DNA of 64,000 bases from Escherichia coli O127:H6 str. E2348/69 (GTDB lineage: Bacteria; Pseudomonadota; Gammaproteobacteria; Enterobacterales; Enterobacteriaceae), in NCBI RefSeq assembly GCF_000026545.1, contig NC_011601.1; one strand, given 5' to 3'. Positions 1,413-31,484 of this stretch are shown here, piece after piece; position 1 is the stretch's first letter; each line of letters opens with the position of its first letter. A program made the translations under genes and the position numbers. The notes under the pieces are model-generated. The model was not told the DNA's origin. It ran no database searches and saw only the letters and a program-made list of their open reading frames with translations.

Positions 1413-4088
1413 TTAAGCGGATTTTTTCGCTTTTTTCTCAGCTTTAGCCGGAGCAGCTTCTTTCTTCGCTGCAGTTTCGCCTTCTACATAATCACGACCG
1501 TAGTAGGTATCCAGCAGAATCTGTTTCAGCTCGGAGATCAGCGGGTAACGCGGGTTAGCGCCGGTGCACTGGTCATCGAATGCATCTTCAGACAGTTTAT
1601 CCACGTTCGCCAGGAAGTCTGCTTCCTGAACGCCAGCTTCACGGATAGATTTCGGAATACCCAGTTCAGCTTTCAGCGTTTCCAGCCATGCCAGCAGTTT
1701 CTCGATCTTAGCTGCAGTACGGTCGCCCGGTGCGCTCAGACCCAGGTGGTCAGCAATTTCAGCATAACGACGGCGAGCCTGCGGACGGTCATACTGGCTG
1801 AATGCAGTCTGCTTGGTCGGGTTGTCATTCGCGTTGTAGCGAATAACGTTACAAATCAGCAGGGCGTTTGCCAGACCGTGCGGAATATGGAACTGGGAAC
1901 CCAGTTTGTGCGCCATTGAGTGACATACACCCAGGAAGGCGTTCGCAAACGCGATACCCGCGATAGTCGCTGCACTGTGAACACGTTCACGCGCTACCGG
2001 ATTTTTAGACCCTTCGTGGTAGGACACTGGCAGATATTCTTTCAGTAGTTTCAGTGCCTGCAGAGCCTGACCATCAGAGAACTCAGATGCCAGTACAGAA
2101 ACATAAGCTTCCATGGCGTGAGTTACTGCGTCCAGACCACCGAAAGCACACAGGGACTTCGGCATGTCCATAACAAGGTTGGCGTCGACAATCGCCATAT
2201 CCGGGGTCAGTGCATAGTCTGCCAGCGGATATTTCTGACCAGTAGTGTCGTCAGTTACAACCGCAAACGGAGTGACTTCAGAACCTGTACCGGAAGTGGT
2301 GGTGACAGCGATCATTTTCGCTTTCACACCCATTTTCGGGAACTTGTAGATACGTTTACGGATATCCATAAAGCGCAGCGCCAGTTCTTCGAAGTGAGTT
2401 TCCGGATGTTCGTACATAACCCACATGATCTTCGCAGCGTCCATCGGGGAACCACCACCCAGCGCGATAATCACGTCTGGTTTGAAGGAGTTTGCCAGTT
2501 CTGCACCTTTACGAACGATGCTCAGGGTCGGGTCAGCTTCTACTTCGAAGAAGACTTCAGTTTCAACGCCTGCTGCTTTCAATACGGAAGTGATCTGATC
2601 AGCATAACCATTGTTGAACAGGAAGCGGTCAGTCACGATGAGCGCACGTTTGTGGCCATCAGTAATCACTTCATCCAGCGCGATTGGCAGGGAGCCACGG
2701 CGGAAGTAGATAGATTTCGGAAGTTTGTGCCACAACATGTTTTCAGCTCGCTTAGCAACGGTTTTCTTGTTGATCAGGTGTTTCGGACCAACGTTTTCAG
2801 AGATGGAGTTACCACCCCAGGAACCACAACCCAGAGTCAGGGAAGGTGCGAGTTTGAAGTTATACAGGTCACCGATACCACCCTGAGAAGCCGGGGTGTT
2901 AATCAGGATACGAGCCGTTTTCATTTTCTGACCGAAGTAAGAAACGCGAGCCGGTTGGTTATCCTGGTCAGTGTACAGGCAAGAGGTATGACCGATACCG
3001 CCCATAGCAACCAGTTTCTCTGCTTTTTCTACCGCGTCTTCGAAATCTTTAGCACGGTACATTGCCAGAGTCGGGGACAGTTTTTCATGTGCGAACGGTT
3101 CGCTTTCATCAACAACGGTCACTTCGCCGATCAGAATCTTGGTGTTTTCTGGTACAGAGAAGCCTGCCAGTTCAGCAATTTTATAGGCTGGCTGACCAAC
3201 GATAGCCGCGTTCAGCGCACCGTTTTTCAGGATAACGTCCTGAACAGCTTTCAGCTCTTTACCCTGCAACAGATAGCCGCCGTGGGTTGCGAAACGTTCA
3301 CGTACTGCGTCATAAACAGAGTCAACAACAACAACAGACTGTTCAGAAGCACAGATTACACCGTTGTCGAAGGTTTTGGACATCAGTACAGATGCAACTG
3401 CACGTTTGATATCAGCAGTTTCATCGATAACAACCGGAGTGTTGCCCGCGCCTACGCCGATAGCTGGTTTACCGGAGCTGTATGCGGCTTTAACCATGCC
3501 CGGACCACCAGTCGCGAGGATCAGGTTGATGTCTGGGTGGTGCATCAGTGCGTTAGACAGTTCAACAGAAGGTTGATCGATCCAGCCGATCAGATCTTTC
3601 GGAGCACCGGCAGCGATAGCAGCCTGTAGAACGATATCAGCCGCTTTGTTGGTTGCATCTTTTGCACGCGGGTGCGGGGAGAAGATAATGGCGTTACGGG
3701 TCTTCAGGCTGATCAGCGATTTGAAGATAGCAGTTGAAGTCGGGTTAGTGGTCGGAACGATACCGCAAATAATACCGATGGGTTCAGCGATAGTGATGGT
3801 ACCAAAAGTGTCGTCTTCAGACAGAACACCACAGGTTTTTTCATCTTTATAGGCGTTGTAGATATATTCAGAAGCAAAGTGGTTTTTGATCACTTTATCT
3901 TCGACGATACCCATGCCGGATTCGGCAACGGCCATTTTCGCGAGTGGGATTCGAGCATCTGCAGCAGCCAGAGCGGCGGCGCGGAAGATTTTGTCTACTT
4001 GCTCTTGAGTGAAACTGGCATATTCACGCTGGGCTTTTTTTACACGCTCTACGAGTGCGTTAAGTTCAGCGACATTAGTAACAGCCAT
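1413..4088 (-). CDS. adhE: bifunctional aldehyde/alcohol dehydrogenase AdhE (891 aa)
   Basis: Full-length ORF with N-terminal aldehyde dehydrogenase and C-terminal Fe-alcohol dehydrogenase regions; sequence recognisable as E. coli AdhE. Confidence 0.97.
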
Positions 4089-25983: not shown

Positions 25984-26265
25984 ATGGAAGAATTAAGAAT
26001 ATTTCTCAATTCTCTTTCGTCAGATGAACAGCGTATGTTTGCATGCGAGTGTGGTACCAGCATCGGTTATCTAAGAAAGGCATTGAGTAAAGGTCAAGTG
26101 TTAGGGGCATCGTTATGTGTCCTTATTGAGCGAGCCAGTAATGGTGAAGTTACACGTCAGCAACTAAGGCCTTTTGATTGGATGAATATTTGGCCCGAGC
26201 TGGAAGATACCAAAACGTTAACACAACCACTTTCTAGGAGCTTGATTCATGAAAATCAAGCATGA
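25984..26265 (+). CDS. Cro/YdaS-like HTH protein
   Basis: 93 aa, first rightward gene opposite the repressor; HTH-like CGTSIGYLRKALSKGQ. Confidence 0.65.
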   Translation: MEELRIFLNSLSSDEQRMFACECGTSIGYLRKALSKGQVLGASLCVLIERASNGEVTRQQLRPFDWMNIWPELEDTKTLTQPLSRSLIHENQA

Positions 26266-26674
26266 ACACATCCGCATGGCGATGAATGTCTGGGCGCATC
26301 CGGACGGCGAAAAAGTGCCGGCTGCGAAAATTACCAAAGCGTATTTCGAGCTGGGAATGACGTTCCCGGAACTGTATGACGACAGCCATCCGGAAGCCCT
26401 GGCCCGTAATACCCAGAAAATTTTCCGTTGGCTGGATAAAGACACCCCTGATGCTGTTGAAAAAATGCAGGCTCTGTTACCGGCGATCGAAAAGGCGATG
26501 CCGCCTTTGCTGGTGGCCCGTATGCGCAGCCACAGTTCTGAATATTACCGTGAGATCGTCGAACGGAGGGATCGGCTGGTGAAGGATGTCGATGATTTTG
26601 TTGCGTCAGCGGTTGTTTTGTATGACCAGATGAATCGCGGCGGCCCGGCAGGGAATGCTGTGGTGATGCACTAA
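26249..26674 (+). CDS. YdaT-like protein (Rac-type immunity-region partner of YdaS)
   Basis: 141 aa, overlaps the preceding gene; position matches Rac-type racR-ydaS-ydaT arrangement. Confidence 0.55.
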   Translation: MKIKHEHIRMAMNVWAHPDGEKVPAAKITKAYFELGMTFPELYDDSHPEALARNTQKIFRWLDKDTPDAVEKMQALLPAIEKAMPPLLVARMRSHSSEYYREIVERRDRLVKDVDDFVASAVVLYDQMNRGGPAGNAVVMH

Positions 26675-26681
26675 AAGCACG

Positions 26682-27659
26682 GTGTTCGGGGGTTTTATGA
26701 GCAGCAAGCTTCATGGTCTTGTCTGGGAAGGGTGCGCCTTCACCGGCATGATCTTATCCAGGGGGGCGGTTATGGCCCGTCTTGCAGACTACAGCAATGA
26801 CGAGGGCGTGTCATGGCCTGCCATTGAAACTATCCGGCGTCAGATCGGTGCAAGAAGTGAATCCACAGTGAAATCGGCTATTGCAGAACTGGCGAAAGAG
26901 GGCTGGCTGACGAAGGAAGAGCGTAAGGTCGGTGGGCGTAATGTAAGCAATATCTATCGGCTTAATGTGGAAAAACTCGAAGCAGCTGCGGCGGCGGCGC
27001 GTGAGTCATATAAACCGAAAAGAAAAATTAGCCCGGCAAAAAATGACCCGTTAACAGTTGACCCGTCAAATATTGACCCCTCAACGGTTGACCCGTCAAA
27101 TTTTGATGGATCAACTGTTGATAAAAAACTGCCGATTAGGGGGGCGATGATTGACCCCGATCCGTCAGTATTAAAACCTGATCCGTCAGATAAAAGATCT
27201 TCTTGTCCGGACGCTTCGCAACCGGACCCGCAGACGGCTGAACAGGATTTTTTAACCCGACACCCTGACGCGGTTGTGTTCAGTGCGAAAAAACGCCAGT
27301 GGGGAAGTCAGGAAGATTTGGTGTGCGCACAGTGGATCTGGGGACGAATCGTGAGTCTTTACGAGCAGGCGGCCAGCTATGATGGCGAGATCACTAGACC
27401 GAAAGAACCCAACTGGACAGCATGGGCCAATGACGTTCGCACAATGCGGATGCTGGATGGCAGAACTCACAGACAAATTTGTGAAATGTTTGGGCGTCTC
27501 CAGCGGGATTCGTTCTGGGTAAAAAACATCATGAGTCCGGCAAAACTCCGGGAAAAATGGGATGAACTGGTTATCCGCCTGGGGCGTTCGCCTGCGCAGC
27601 GTTGCGTGAATCACATTTCTGAACCGGACACTGAAATTCCGCCGGGCTTCAGGGGGTAA
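26682..27659 (+). CDS. replication initiator, O-like (N-terminal winged-helix; internal iteron-encoding repeats)
   Basis: 325 aa; gene body carries 15-bp-spaced TTGACCCGTCAAA-like repeats encoding DPLTVDPSNIDPSTVDPSNFDGSTVD. Confidence 0.7.
   Translation: MFGGFMSSKLHGLVWEGCAFTGMILSRGAVMARLADYSNDEGVSWPAIETIRRQIGARSESTVKSAIAELAKEGWLTKEERKVGGRNVSNIYRLNVEKLEAAAAAARESYKPKRKISPAKNDPLTVDPSNIDPSTVDPSNFDGSTVDKKLPIRGAMIDPDPSVLKPDPSDKRSSCPDASQPDPQTAEQDFLTRHPDAVVFSAKKRQWGSQEDLVCAQWIWGRIVSLYEQAASYDGEITRPKEPNWTAWANDVRTMRMLDGRTHRQICEMFGRLQRDSFWVKNIMSPAKLREKWDELVIRLGRSPAQRCVNHISEPDTEIPPGFRG
27043..27192. repeat. candidate origin of replication: five 15-bp-spaced iterons (27043-27115) plus further half-sites to about 27192, inside the O-like gene
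   Basis: Repeats at about 27043, 27058, 27073, 27088, 27103; then attgaccccgatccgtcag and ctgatccgtcagat. Confidence 0.65.
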
Positions 27660-27699
27660 GTGTTAATTTCTGGTCATGAGGTAATTTTCAGGAGGGCTT

Positions 27700-28122
27700 G
27701 TGGCAAAAGTTTTTACACAAGAAGAGCGGGAAAAAATTAAAGGGCAGGTTGTTGAACTCGTACGCCAGAGTGGGCGCGAGACGTTACGACAACTGGAAAC
27801 TAAAACTGGGGCAACAAGATATCTGATGAGCGTTCTGGCCAGAGAGCTGGTTGCCAGTGGCGATGTATACAACTCTGGTTACGGGTTATTCCCGTCTGAA
27901 CAGGCGCGTAAGGACTGGCAAAATGCCCGTAAAAAGCTCTCAAGGGCAAAGCTGAAGAAACCATCTGCGGTTGATCCGGACCTTATCTGGTCATTACCTG
28001 ACGGAGAAATACGTCGCTACGACAGGCGTCAGAACATAATCTGTCGCGAGTGCCGGAAGAGCGAAGCTATGCAGCGCGTACTGGCGTTTTATCAGGGGAA
28101 TTTTGAGGAGGTGGTGCGGTGA
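27700..28122 (+). CDS. hypothetical protein with HTH-like segment and CxxC motif
   Basis: 140 aa; ETLRQLETKTGATRYLMSVLARELVASG; ...ICRECRKSE. Confidence 0.45.
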   Translation: MAKVFTQEEREKIKGQVVELVRQSGRETLRQLETKTGATRYLMSVLARELVASGDVYNSGYGLFPSEQARKDWQNARKKLSRAKLKKPSAVDPDLIWSLPDGEIRRYDRRQNIICRECRKSEAMQRVLAFYQGNFEEVVR

Positions 28123-28797: not shown

Positions 28798-29331
28798 GTG
28801 GAGATAATAATGGGAATAACTAAAGAACGATTGTTGGAAATAGCAAACCTTAGTGATTGGGCATTAAGTGATGAGAGAATTGTTTCTCCTCATGCTTATG
28901 AGTCAGTTACAAGTATAGAAATAACAACAATGGCTAGAATGCTGCTTGGTTATTTCAAAATAGAAAATAAAAAACAGATGGATAGTAATGTTGATATATG
29001 TGAGATTTTAGACGATTGGGGGGCTTGGGTTGTGGCTGGTAATAGTTCTATTGATTGGCAGGAAATAGCTGATAAATATAAAAATGTTGTTCCTCATGGT
29101 AAAAAATCACGTCGTCAGTGCAGCAATGATGAAGGGCGAATTATTGACATTAGTATCCTTAGGTTAGAAAGATATAAGCAACAAGAATATGAGTTAATTG
29201 TTGCTCATTTCGTGATTGGTTTATCTCTTCGTGCTATTGCAAAGCAACAAGGATGTTCAGATGGAACAATTCGTAAAAGATTGCAAAAAGCCTTAGGTTT
29301 TTTGACTGGATATATAGCAATTACCAGTTAA
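28798..29331 (+). CDS. regulatory protein with sigma-70 region-4-like HTH C-terminus
   Basis: 177 aa; C-terminus ...LSLRAIAKQQGCSDGTIRKRLQKALGFL resembles sigma region 4.2 / antiterminator-type HTH. Confidence 0.5.
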   Translation: MEIIMGITKERLLEIANLSDWALSDERIVSPHAYESVTSIEITTMARMLLGYFKIENKKQMDSNVDICEILDDWGAWVVAGNSSIDWQEIADKYKNVVPHGKKSRRQCSNDEGRIIDISILRLERYKQQEYELIVAHFVIGLSLRAIAKQQGCSDGTIRKRLQKALGFLTGYIAITS

Positions 29332-29969
29332 GAGTCAGCGGTTTTTTTACCAGTGTAATGGTATAAGGATACTCCCATGTGTCTTACATGATATGGAAGC
29401 GCTGTTGCTGGATGCTTTGTGATACTCTTAAAGCGGAGGGGAGAGCCTTCCGCTTCAATTTCTGCGTCCGAAACGGTCGTAGAGAAAAATTCTTTCCATT
29501 CATTGAATTTTACTGCTGATTTGTCAGACTTTATATAAATTAGAATTCCTCCATGATCGTCACGTGACGTACCCGTGCCGTAACGTTCGGTTAGCTGAAT
29601 CCAGCCATTATGAATAGATTTGGGGCCTCTCCATAATTTTGCTTCACCGATCCATTCGAATTTTCCGAATTGATGTTTAACTAATAAATCAACGTGACCG
29701 CCATGTTGAGTATCATGTTCAACATCATAAAACCTACCTTTCAGGAAATTTTTGATCGACGCTGTTAGCTCGTCCTCTCCCCACTTAGCATCTTGATAGA
29801 AGTGTTTGTCATTTTCTAAATTCTGAATAGCGTCGTCTAAATCTTCATAGAGTTGCTTTACAAAAATATTTTTGTCTGCAGCTAATTTTCTTTGAACCAT
29901 TCCCCTAAATTCAGGATCCATTCTAATTAATGATTGAAGGTCTGCAGTACAGATGTTTACATCACTCAT
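29328..29969 (-). CDS. cassette gene C: putative Mrr-like PD-(D/E)xK nuclease (213 aa)
   Basis: Start placed at ATG 29969 (MSDVNICT..., GGAG upstream) rather than track start 30032; motif HGGHVDLLVKHQFGKFEWIGEAKLW resembles the Mrr-cat GxGxhD ... (Q/E)xK signature; 8-nt overlap with gene B. Confidence 0.55.
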   Translation of the reverse strand: MSDVNICTADLQSLIRMDPEFRGMVQRKLAADKNIFVKQLYEDLDDAIQNLENDKHFYQDAKWGEDELTASIKNFLKGRFYDVEHDTQHGGHVDLLVKHQFGKFEWIGEAKLWRGPKSIHNGWIQLTERYGTGTSRDDHGGILIYIKSDKSAVKFNEWKEFFSTTVSDAEIEAEGSPLRFKSITKHPATALPYHVRHMGVSLYHYTGKKTADS

Positions 29970-30390
29970 GCAGACTCTCCAAAAGACTCGAAGGAGTAAA
30001 GTATGGATAAAGATACTGGCTAAAATTATCAACCAATTCGCCAGTTTCTGGATGGTAAAAACTTCCTGTGTCTAAAGCATAGGAAATAAGATCATCTTCA
30101 ACTGGTATTGGTTCTTCCGTTAAATTATCAATGTATTGAAAATGCATATCCAATAGATGTGCTTTATAGCTAGATAAATAATCAGTTGCTTTTATTAGCA
30201 GGATATAGCCATCTTTCGTATCAGTTAGATAGGTTAAACCATTGATAAGGGTTTTGTATGTAAAGTGATTGATATTTTTAGCATCTTTACTAACCAGAAA
30301 AAGAAAAAGATCACGACACACACTGCGAACAGGATCATTAAAATCCTGCTCTATTTGCGTGATAATGTCGTGATATATACTCTTTTTCAT
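29962..30390 (-). CDS. cassette gene B: hypothetical protein (142 aa), no recognisable domain
   Basis: ATG overlaps stop of gene A (ATGA); AT-rich codon usage distinct from neighbours. Confidence 0.55.
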   Translation of the reverse strand: MKKSIYHDIITQIEQDFNDPVRSVCRDLFLFLVSKDAKNINHFTYKTLINGLTYLTDTKDGYILLIKATDYLSSYKAHLLDMHFQYIDNLTEEPIPVEDDLISYALDTGSFYHPETGELVDNFSQYLYPYFTPSSLLESLHE

Positions 30391-31484
30391 TTATGGCCTG
30401 ATGATCTCGCTCTTCTTTTCTCTTCACAGGACTTAACAGAATCCAATATTTTTTCAACAATAAATATAATCGAATCAATGTTGTTACAGTTCTTCGCAAT
30501 TGCTTCATGCAACCTAATTCTAGGATTATCAAGCATTGTCCTTTTTCCTGGTAATATTAACTCTACTGATAAAATATGTGAAGAACTTTGTGGTAAATCC
30601 CAAATTTTTCCCAACTTAAACTTTGTCAATATTGGGCTTGCGGACTCTCCACTATGATGGTAAACATCTTGACGCAAACACTTTTGACTTGGTTTGAGTT
30701 TTAAAGAACTTGTATTGCCATCTGAGGTGATAAAAGATACATGAGAAATTCTGCCATCTACTTTTTCGTAAAGATCTTGTATTGAACCAAATAATTCAAG
30801 AGGATTGTTTAAAATAACGCCAGCTTCTTTTTTTATAAATTTAGCCACAAGGTATTGTTGAGGCTGTGATTCACTTCTTGGAAGGATAGATAAATCAATC
30901 GTAAGAATTAATATTTTTTCTGCAGGCATTAGCATGATGGTATTAAAGCATTGCGTGACTTGGCGTGTTTTGCATTTTATTTCTCCACCATTAGCACGTA
31001 ATTCCATACCCGCATCGCTAAGATGTGTTGGGTCAAGCTCTATCACTTCAGTGTAATACGCTTTGGATAAAAAAACAGCAGTGTCAATTTGTTTATCACG
31101 AATGATATCTTGACGTAGTTCAGCAAAATGCAGCTCAGTATCAGCAACTAACAGCTCCTCTCTGGATAAAGGAATTGGGTATTTTTCTGAGAAGGGGCTA
31201 TTGTCCTTTTTCTGATTTGTGAAAATTGTTTGTAATTTTGCTACGTCTTCATCGGTGATTCTATAAATAGAAAGTAATCGATTCCCGCTAAAAATTAAAC
31301 CTTTCCAGAAATCGTCGATTCTGTCTTTTAGGTCGGGATTATGCTGAACTACACTATTTACACGTTCAATAAAAAGGGGTAATCCTTGGGCCGTTACACC
31401 CAGTGATGAACCAAGAAGCTTACGGGTGTTGCGCCAGCCAAAGCGTGAATTGATGTTTTTTACTGTTTGCTCAAGCATTAACAC
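30387..31484 (-). CDS. cassette gene A: hypothetical protein (365 aa), no recognisable domain
   Basis: First gene of a three-gene minus-strand operon; no Walker or other nucleotide-binding motif seen. Confidence 0.6.
   Translation of the reverse strand: MLMLEQTVKNINSRFGWRNTRKLLGSSLGVTAQGLPLFIERVNSVVQHNPDLKDRIDDFWKGLIFSGNRLLSIYRITDEDVAKLQTIFTNQKKDNSPFSEKYPIPLSREELLVADTELHFAELRQDIIRDKQIDTAVFLSKAYYTEVIELDPTHLSDAGMELRANGGEIKCKTRQVTQCFNTIMLMPAEKILILTIDLSILPRSESQPQQYLVAKFIKKEAGVILNNPLELFGSIQDLYEKVDGRISHVSFITSDGNTSSLKLKPSQKCLRQDVYHHSGESASPILTKFKLGKIWDLPQSSSHILSVELILPGKRTMLDNPRIRLHEAIAKNCNNIDSIIFIVEKILDSVKSCEEKRRARSSGHK

Follow-up and report, generated by a model that had tools for sequence, protein, structure and literature searches.

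A gene in a lambdoid prophage of Escherichia coli O127:H6 str. E2348/69 that resembles the replication initiator O of phage lambda carries a run of short, regularly spaced repeats within its coding sequence. Do these repeats simply encode a flexible stretch of protein, or do they mark the site at which the prophage DNA begins to replicate? The gene lies within 64,000 nucleotides of contig NC_011601.1 (assembly GCF_000026545.1); this whole stretch was analysed and is referred to below as the window. Because an origin embedded in its initiator gene is textbook biology for lambda, an array of repeats at this place is not surprising in itself. Sequence comparisons reported here indicate that the segment from about 27039 to 27232 is probably the replication origin of the prophage, situated within the part of the initiator gene that encodes the linker. 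DNA matching the gene is present in 3264 of 5426 complete E. coli genomes, and our reading of the literature found no published description of the repeats of this initiator family, nor any published test of repeat binding or autonomous replication. The locus most likely represents an origin of lambda design in a widespread initiator family from which none had been described; the embedded design is the familiar part.

A phased array of dyads in the linker-coding region

Five full dyad units span 27043–27114 at a spacing of exactly 15 base pairs (bp) (Table 1). Tandem Repeats Finder reported period-15 (5 copies) and period-30 (2.5–3 copies) arrays at 27023/27032–27121 with 80–84% matches and scores of 96–101, and a repeat search returned four in-register copies at 15-bp spacing together with a 33-nucleotide imperfect inverted repeat across the array. 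The motif TGANNNNTCAA is not over-represented in the window, where it has 12 matches on both strands compared with 11 ± 3.8 expected; eight of the 12 are the four array sites. In 200 first-order Markov simulations of the window, at most 2 sites fell within 61 bp and at most 2 were in 15-bp phase, compared with 4 in phase in the actual sequence. The array is real and lies far beyond chance.

Read in frame, the registers are AATGACCCGTTAACA, GTTGACCCGTCAAAT, ATTGACCCCTCAACG, GTTGACCCGTCAAAT, TTTGATGGATCAACT and GTTGATAAAAAACTG, which encode NDPLT, VDPSN, IDPST, VDPSN, FDGST and VDKK. This peptide lies in the linker between an HTH_36 domain (amino acids 31–76) and a lambda-O-like domain (amino acids 172–290). 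A first-pass annotation, made by a model from the letters and a list of open reading frames (ORFs), had described five dyad copies at 15-bp spacing, the pentapeptide periodicity that they confer on the initiator, and further half-sites beyond them. The two repeat searches and the simulations bear out the phased copies, the translation displays the periodicity, and the additional half-sites are found as the half unit at 27118 and as the sites at 27150–27168 and 27178–27189.

TTGA and TCAA half-sites alternate uninterrupted, so the array (27036–27130) forms one long imperfect palindrome; as a single strand it is predicted to fold into a hairpin with 33-bp arms (ΔG −16.9 kcal/mol, z −5.3). Half-sites recur every 7–8 bp within the 15-bp period, and adjacent units therefore face nearly opposite sides of the helix.

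Conservation in homologues and selection on the DNA

Phage and prophage homologues at 55–70% protein identity all carry 15-bp-phased TGA-N4-TCA units in the same place. In SfIV, PhiR49_1, vB_EcoS-733R5, Kp4874-4, ST101-KPC2phi6.3 and YeP1, whose proteins are 55–59% identical to that of the window, TCTGAC-NNN-TCAAAA recurs with a 15-bp period at the matching position. Where the window-type N-terminal domain is encoded by prophages of Salmonella, Edwardsiella, Morganella and Pantoea, the repeated unit is TTGA-N4-(T/C)CAA, again every 15 bp. The phased run comprises 2–6 units across 79 unique linkers, and the homologues range from 303 to 332 amino acids in length, differing by steps of 5. Two N-terminal subtypes can be distinguished, one associated with (T/A)TGA...TCAA units and alternating spacers and the other with CTGA...TCAAAAT; this pairing shows consistency only, because domain and repeats are physically linked. 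A whole-protein scan of viral contigs returned copies that were 99–100% identical and served for polymorphism counts and for the survey of helicase loaders described below.

Several observations distinguish selection on DNA from selection on the peptide. Over six lineage pairs, identical residues are encoded by identical codons in 71–90% of cases in the linker versus 29–44% in the N-terminal domain (Fisher p 0.01 to 3e-7), even though the linker is the least conserved part of the protein. We relied on this between-lineage test instead of a pooled test of Ser, Asp and Lys codon usage in the arrays, which was significant and is confounded by repeat duplication. The middle codon of the unit varies freely (CCG, CCC, GCA, GCG, ACA, ACG, GGA or GGG, encoding P, A, T or G), in contrast to the fixed TGA and TCA on either side of it. 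The unit also occurs in both orientations, interleaved in one array: as TTGACCCCTCAA it is translated D-P-S, and in reverse complement, as TTGAGGGGTCAA, E-G-S. The fifth unit of the window, TTGATGGATCAA, is of the inverted kind.

The peak of invariance in the gene falls outside the folded domains. Across five genera, the block at 27143–27232 reaches 83% invariant positions per 30 bp, compared with 40–60% in the folded domains, and an exact pattern scan located it in at least 120 viral contigs. An overlapping gene does not account for this invariance, as the ORFs that overlap the block encode just 28–30 amino acids and none is longer. Codon identity, the variable middle codon, the orientation flips and the position of the invariant block together argue that the constraint is on the DNA rather than on the peptide. 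They also bear out two expectations of the first-pass annotation, namely that the DNA sites impose the periodicity on the protein and that the repeats are conserved in homologues, since phages and prophages of several genera keep the 15-bp units in the same place.

A candidate unwinding element adjoins the repeats

In a nearest-neighbor scan of the gene, the least stable 40-mer (27165–27204) has a stability of −46.9, compared with a gene mean of −56.3 ± 3.5, which places it 2.7 standard deviations above the mean. The same scan of lambda O has its minimum at the known AT-rich region, and in SfIV, Kp4874 and mEp460 the minimum occupies the equivalent position, just past the repeats. Conserved across genera in this stretch of the window are two GATCCGTCAG motifs and three GATC sites. 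GATCCGTCAG and GATCC(G/A)TCA recur base for base in SfIV, in Klebsiella and Yersinia phages, and in the Salmonella, Edwardsiella, Morganella and Pantoea prophages.

These findings modify what had been proposed for the DNA beyond the array. The A-rich stretch noted there exists as the runs GATAAAAAAC, GTATTAAAACC and GATAAAAGATC but is modest, with GC content over 40 bp falling to 0.33–0.38. The interval assigned to the element, which ended at 27192, contains the array but stops short of the conserved DNA, which runs to about 27232. From its conservation and stability, the likely unwinding region is the block at 27143–27232, weakest at 27165–27204, and not the short A run beside the array. Homology with the mEp460-type gene resumes at the GC-rich inverted repeat at the right edge of the element, which may be the counterpart of the palindrome to the right of the AT-rich region in lambda.

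Table 1 Features of the initiator gene and its embedded repeats (window coordinates).
Feature	Position	Strand	Description
O-like replication initiator gene	26697–27659	+	320 amino acids; RefSeq WP_000095665.1; ORF and RefSeq coding sequence
N-terminal winged-helix DNA-binding domain, coding region	26697–27005	+	about amino acids 1–103; presumed reader of the iterons
Iteron array, six 15-bp registers	27039–27128		five TTGA-N4-TCAA dyads and a half unit
Array unit 1	27043		ATGACCCGTTAA
Array unit 2	27058		TTGACCCGTCAA
Array unit 3	27073		TTGACCCCTCAA
Array unit 4	27088		TTGACCCGTCAA
Array unit 5	27103		TTGATGGATCAA; same dyad, center inverted
Array unit 6	27118		TTGATAAAAAAC; left half alone
Most conserved DNA block of the gene	27143–27232		five-genera comparison
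Distal iteron-like sites	27150–27189		ATTGACCCC-GATCCGTCAG at 27150–27168 (TTGAC half-site); CTGATCCGTCAG at 27178–27189; GATC at 27159 and 27180
Candidate DNA-unwinding element	27165–27204		least stable 40-mer of the gene, 68% A+T; GATC at 27180 and 27196
GC-rich inverted repeat GTCCGG...CCGGAC	27205–27227		GTCCGGAC itself palindromic; right edge of the element
Lambda-O-like C-terminal domain, coding region	27240–27596	+	tblastn to lambda O
DnaT-like C-terminal tail, coding region	27597–27656	+	...QRCVNHISEPDTEIPPGFRG; matches the extreme DnaT C-terminus
Next gene, DUF977/Ren-like	27700–28122	+	directly after the initiator gene

A mosaic initiator whose repeats follow its DNA-binding domain

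The sole RefSeq label of the initiator is 'helix-turn-helix domain-containing protein'. The whole protein matches PHROG 391 'replication initiation O-like' with an E-value of 9e-114, as well as PHROGs 277 and 9773 of the same description. At the N-terminus, Pfam identifies HTH_36 (27.4 bits versus a cut-off of 25) and gives a weak match to DnaD_N. An AlphaFold2 model of residues 1–106 (pLDDT 73) has winged-helix topology; its top match by TM-score is the N-terminal domain of Bacillus subtilis DnaD (2v79, TM 0.66–0.67), and it also resembles many dimeric regulators of the MarR/ArsR type. A lambda O-type origin-binding domain was considered for this region and rejected, as hhalign found no relation to residues 1–171 of lambda O (probability 0.1%). 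Residues 172–290 match the C-terminal domain of lambda O with 38.7% identity (tblastn, E 1e-18) and align similarly with phi80 gene 15; no Pfam model matches this domain. The PHROG and lambda O matches agree with the earlier designation of the gene as an O-like initiator. Given the HTH_36 N-terminus, the lambda O match and the match of its last residues to DnaT described below, the initiator is a mosaic: its DNA-binding domain is not that of lambda, its linker is encoded by the repeats, its C-terminal domain resembles that of lambda O and its tail resembles that of DnaT.

Two exchanges of these modules among related phages are informative. The mEp460 initiator (and protein P0120) has a C-terminal domain and tail near-identical to those of the window protein and a different N-terminal domain; its array consists of five copies of CATCNGGTCAAAATGA at a 23-bp period and then three 12-bp AT-rich repeats (mEp460 locus 3199–3370). 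The initiator of Yersinia phage YeP1 has an unrelated C-terminal domain, Phg_2220_C, but retains the GATC block and the 15-bp units along with the N-terminal domain. In both swaps the repeats go with the DNA-binding domain, which would be expected of sites that this domain reads.

A further arrangement is found in the Tritos initiator (locus 1880–1962), which has another N-terminal domain, five TGTCACGACA every 10–11 bp and then three 12-bp copies of ACAGATAAAGAT. Initiators of the mEp460 and Tritos types share with that of the window a repeat array followed by short AT-rich repeats in the linker-coding region, the same C-terminal domain and a DnaT-like tail. They differ in having their own N-terminal domains and their own repeats (CATCNGGTCAAAATGA at 23 bp and TGTCACGACA at 10–11 bp), and their arrays look like further undescribed types of origin.

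The DnaT-like tail and the route of helicase loading

The last 17–21 residues of the initiator, VN..SEPD..IPPGFRG (tail ...VNHISEPDTEIPPGFRG), are nearly identical to the C-terminus of DnaT. In a phmmer search of the PDB, the top three hits were the DnaT chains 2ru8, 6aep and 9zbt, aligned end to end over the last 21 residues only; the NCBIfam DnaT model is matched at positions 159–179 of 179 (16.8 bits versus a cut-off of 201). We rejected the possibility that the initiator is DnaT itself, as there is no DnaT match outside the tail and thus none to its N-terminal oligomerization domain, acidic linker or three-helix C-terminal domain.

After the initiator, the window prophage has no P gene and none for a DnaC-like or DnaB-like protein. 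Near-identical loci elsewhere contain an extra 1.5 kb between window positions 27663 and 27691, which encodes a DnaC-like AAA+ protein (IstB_IS21, E 7e-19) and DUF1627. This segment is present in 64 of 95 window-type loci, and the other 31 have the short form found in the window. We surveyed 166 loci that contain the conserved origin block, seeking a P homologue within 2.5 kb. Among the 160 loci with a DnaT-like tail, none had a P homologue, 64 had a DnaC-like gene and 96 had no loader; every one of the 65 loci of the SfIV type, to which some isolated phages belong, is among these 96. A lambda-P gene followed in 5 of 5 initiators with a lambda-type tail. The surveyed loci are not phylogenetically independent, and the link between tail and loader is a correlation among related loci. 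Lambda O itself ends ...NTDWIYGVDL, and the Morganella member of the family has an ending like it.

By tblastn against a phage collection, the DnaT-like tail ends five other types of initiator. Three of these, the 75/02 Stx (Shiga toxin) initiator, Gifsy-2 O with its lambda-like 22-bp iterons, and Rac YdaU, precede a DnaC-like gene, which in Rac encodes the DnaC homologue YdaV; there is no loader for the SPN1S and Tritos initiators. It is tempting to speculate, with somewhat less than even confidence, that the tail decides how the helicase is loaded. Lambda-type tails (...NTDWIYGVDL, ...EGWRDVL) would direct the initiator to P, and DnaT-like tails (...SEPDxxIPPGFRG) either to DnaB with a DnaC-type loader or to the PriA/PriB restart primosome of the host. 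DopC (2017, PMC5509034), with a DnaT C-terminal motif beside a P-derived gene, is a partial counter-example, and a 2026 paper on preprimosome structure gives no function to the extreme C-terminus of DnaT.

If the proposal is true, lambdoid phages that encode only O could replicate without a loader gene of their own, which would explain the O-only modules that a 2025 survey called not understood (PMC12315714). The conserved C-terminal tail of DnaT would then be its contact for DnaC-DnaB or PriA, and the dnaT-dnaC operon would mirror phage initiator-DnaC modules such as Rac ydaU-ydaV.

A model for the origin and its alternatives

We propose a model in which the N-terminal winged helix would bind the 15-bp-spaced TTGA-N4-TCAA dyads and the GATCCGTCAG sites, assembling a multi-protein complex like the O-some of lambda. 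Strand opening would occur in the adjacent, least stable part of the conserved block, the GATC-containing 27165–27204. The lambda-O-like C-terminal domain and the DnaT-like tail would then recruit host DnaB through a DnaC-type loader; host DnaC is proposed for this role, as the prophage itself encodes no loader. In this scheme 27039–27128 would serve as the initiator-binding array and 27143–27232 as the core of strand opening.

Measured against origins of the ori-lambda type, the locus lies inside the initiator gene, between the coding regions of its two domains. It has five repeated sites with an internal dyad, a half unit and two distal sites, where the type has at least four. An easily melted A+T-rich region, weaker than that of lambda, lies directly downstream, and selection acts on the DNA sequence itself. 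The downstream P-type loader gene is absent. With the lambda O family, the protein shares the C-terminal domain and not the N-terminal one. The likeness to lambda ori inside O that the first-pass annotation had drawn thus stands on comparison, with the repeats between a DNA-binding and a C-terminal domain.

Several points weigh against the origin assignment. Neither the repeat units nor the homologous loci are independent, and slippage or gene conversion may inflate codon identity in the array, a caveat that does not apply to the non-repeated block at 27143–27232. Half-site spacing of 7–8 bp with a 15-bp period departs from the 19-bp iterons of lambda. The candidate unwinding element has 68% A+T, compared with 78% in lambda, and is weak. 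The four GATC sites in 91 bp are not significant alone; comparable clusters occur elsewhere in the window, and for this reason GATC clustering was not used as stand-alone evidence. According to the 2025 survey, no study has addressed lambdoid phages whose module is O-only (PMC12315714). Finally, the window prophage lacks the DnaC-like gene of 64 of its 95 close relatives and carries an insertion sequence (IS) element elsewhere, so the origin may never fire in this strain.

This last point leads to the alternative that survives best, although we consider it rather unlikely: the element would be a relic, a once-working origin that became inactive in this strain when the phage DnaC-like loader gene was deleted. 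Relative to the 64 near-identical loci, 1.5 kb with the DnaC-like AAA+ and DUF1627 genes is indeed absent after the initiator, and ISEc13 has inserted in the prophage. However, dozens of genomes carry the initiator ORF and every repeat unit intact and without differences, the loader-less arrangement is common to 31 of the 95 window-type loci, and isolated phages with SfIV-type initiators (SfII, SfIV, PhiR49_1 and 733R5) have no loader gene at all. Decay of this kind would in any case bear on activity in this strain and not on the identity of the element.

The array could instead be a cis-acting site with another function, such as an autoregulatory operator or roadblock to which the initiator or a neighboring regulator would bind, a Dam/SeqA switch, or a partition or packaging site, with the true origin elsewhere in the prophage. 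Centromere-binding and repressor proteins also use arrays of short dyads at sub-helical-turn spacing, the GATC sites are conserved, a strong AT-rich element is missing, and the O-only mode of lambdoid replication is not known (PMC12315714). We nevertheless regard this reading as improbable. The position of the array inside the initiator gene matches the origins of lambda and Stx phages (PMC7466680), and in the module swaps the type of repeat follows the N-terminal domain of the initiator. Scans of the array and its flanks gave no promoter- or terminator-like signal, and the early region of the prophage has no partition genes. Rfam yielded no family match and no RNA element, only a single sub-threshold microRNA hit from the palindromic array. 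A relaxed match to the DnaA box at 26966–26974 was dropped, since such matches are at chance level (5 versus 6 expected) and this one is not conserved in SfIV.

Least probable of all, and very unlikely in our view, is a coding tandem repeat that has no cis function, a flexible (D-P/A/T-S-x-x)n linker grown and shrunk by slippage: copy number does shift by 5 amino acids among homologues of 303 to 332 residues, a pattern that slippage typically leaves, alignments show the region as an inter-domain linker rich in gaps, and recently duplicated units share codons without selection, but the central residue varies while its flanking bases are kept, inverted units give unrelated peptides (DPS versus EGS) from one DNA site, no DNA of the gene is better conserved across genera than the non-repeated block at 27143–27232, where synonymous sites are fixed, the other N-terminal domain of mEp460 brings another repeat rather than none, and the stability minimum adjoins the repeats as in lambda.

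The origin reading gives these observations wider interest. It defines the parts of an origin (consensus, spacing, extent and likely unwinding block) for a very common prophage module of enterobacteria. It also provides a clean case of a cis element shaping a protein, in which one DNA site yields DPS or EGS pentapeptides according to its orientation. The link between tail type and loader type is a lead on helicase recruitment without P and on the role of the host DnaT tail.

The prophage surrounding the initiator gene

The lambdoid prophage adjoins ompW and encodes integrase, excisionase, exonuclease, dicB and a repressor-like gene, together with YdaS-like and YdaT-like (cro/cII-like) genes, the initiator, DUF977, Q antiterminators, ISEc13 and lysis genes. 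The genes upstream of the initiator, at 26249–26674 and 25984–26265, match the Pfam families 'YdaT_toxin' and 'YdaS_toxin', but PHROGs places the YdaT-like protein among CII-like transcriptional activators. For genes at the cro/cII positions, the word 'toxin' in these Pfam names looks misleading. At about 33.8–37 kb of the window are two Q-type antiterminator genes and the genes for tRNA-Ile and tRNA-Arg, with ISEc13 inserted immediately downstream, which suggests that the late region of the prophage is mosaic and possibly defective. Three co-directional ORFs (234, 142 and 365 amino acids) occupy the minus strand at 29328–31484, between a Q-like antiterminator gene and hokD. They have no Pfam match, and their sole signal is a sub-threshold PADLOC hit to PDC-S54 (E 0.002); they may constitute an accessory or defence cassette.

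Comparison with known replication systems

Iteron plasmids (RepE, RepA and pi) combine a winged-helix initiator with arrays of the sites that it binds and, next to them, a region where the strands unwind. Their iterons are direct repeats that lie outside the rep gene, usually with DnaA boxes. The window locus likewise has a winged-helix initiator, an array of sites and an adjacent candidate unwinding region, but its sites are dyads inside the gene. An iteron-plasmid origin of the Rep_3 type was rejected on account of these in-gene dyads, of the absence of a Rep family match in Pfam, and of the absence of a significant DnaA box.

Two proteins resemble parts of the initiator. E. coli DnaT (primosomal protein I) shares the tail, and the remainder of the initiator has no DnaT match. 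DopC is an O-like protein with HTH_36 and a DnaT C-terminal motif (PMC5509034). Its gene is chromosomal and domesticated, has no iterons and is partnered by a P-derived gene, whereas the window encodes a phage initiator with iterons and no P. A survey of 314 lambdoid phages reported that 34, including LLS, encode an O homologue only and that their replication is not understood (PMC12315714; Genome Res 2025). That paper covers gene content; origin, repeats and the DnaT-like tail are not described there.

The closest parallel is with lambda and its relatives. Lambdoid phages have their origin midway through O, as a set of iterons and then an AT-rich region; the iterons number four in lambda and six in Stx phages, whose O is 13 residues longer as a result (PMC7466680). 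The window differs from lambda in that the N-terminal DNA-binding domain of its initiator is unrelated in sequence, and in that its sites are 12-bp dyads every 15 bp in both orientations, compared with 19-bp iterons at a longer interval in lambda. Its AT-rich element is weaker and contains conserved GATC sites, and the initiator ends in a DnaT-like tail with no P gene, in place of the ...NTDWIYGVDL tail of lambda O. What the window shares with ori-lambda and with the six-iteron Stx origins (P27 and 933W) is the arrangement as a whole. Repeated dyads, which the initiator would bind, lie in mid-gene and are followed by the least stable, A+T-richer stretch; variation in iteron number alters the length of the protein; the C-terminal domains are homologous (38.7%); and the lambda gene order of cII-like, O and ren-like genes is retained.

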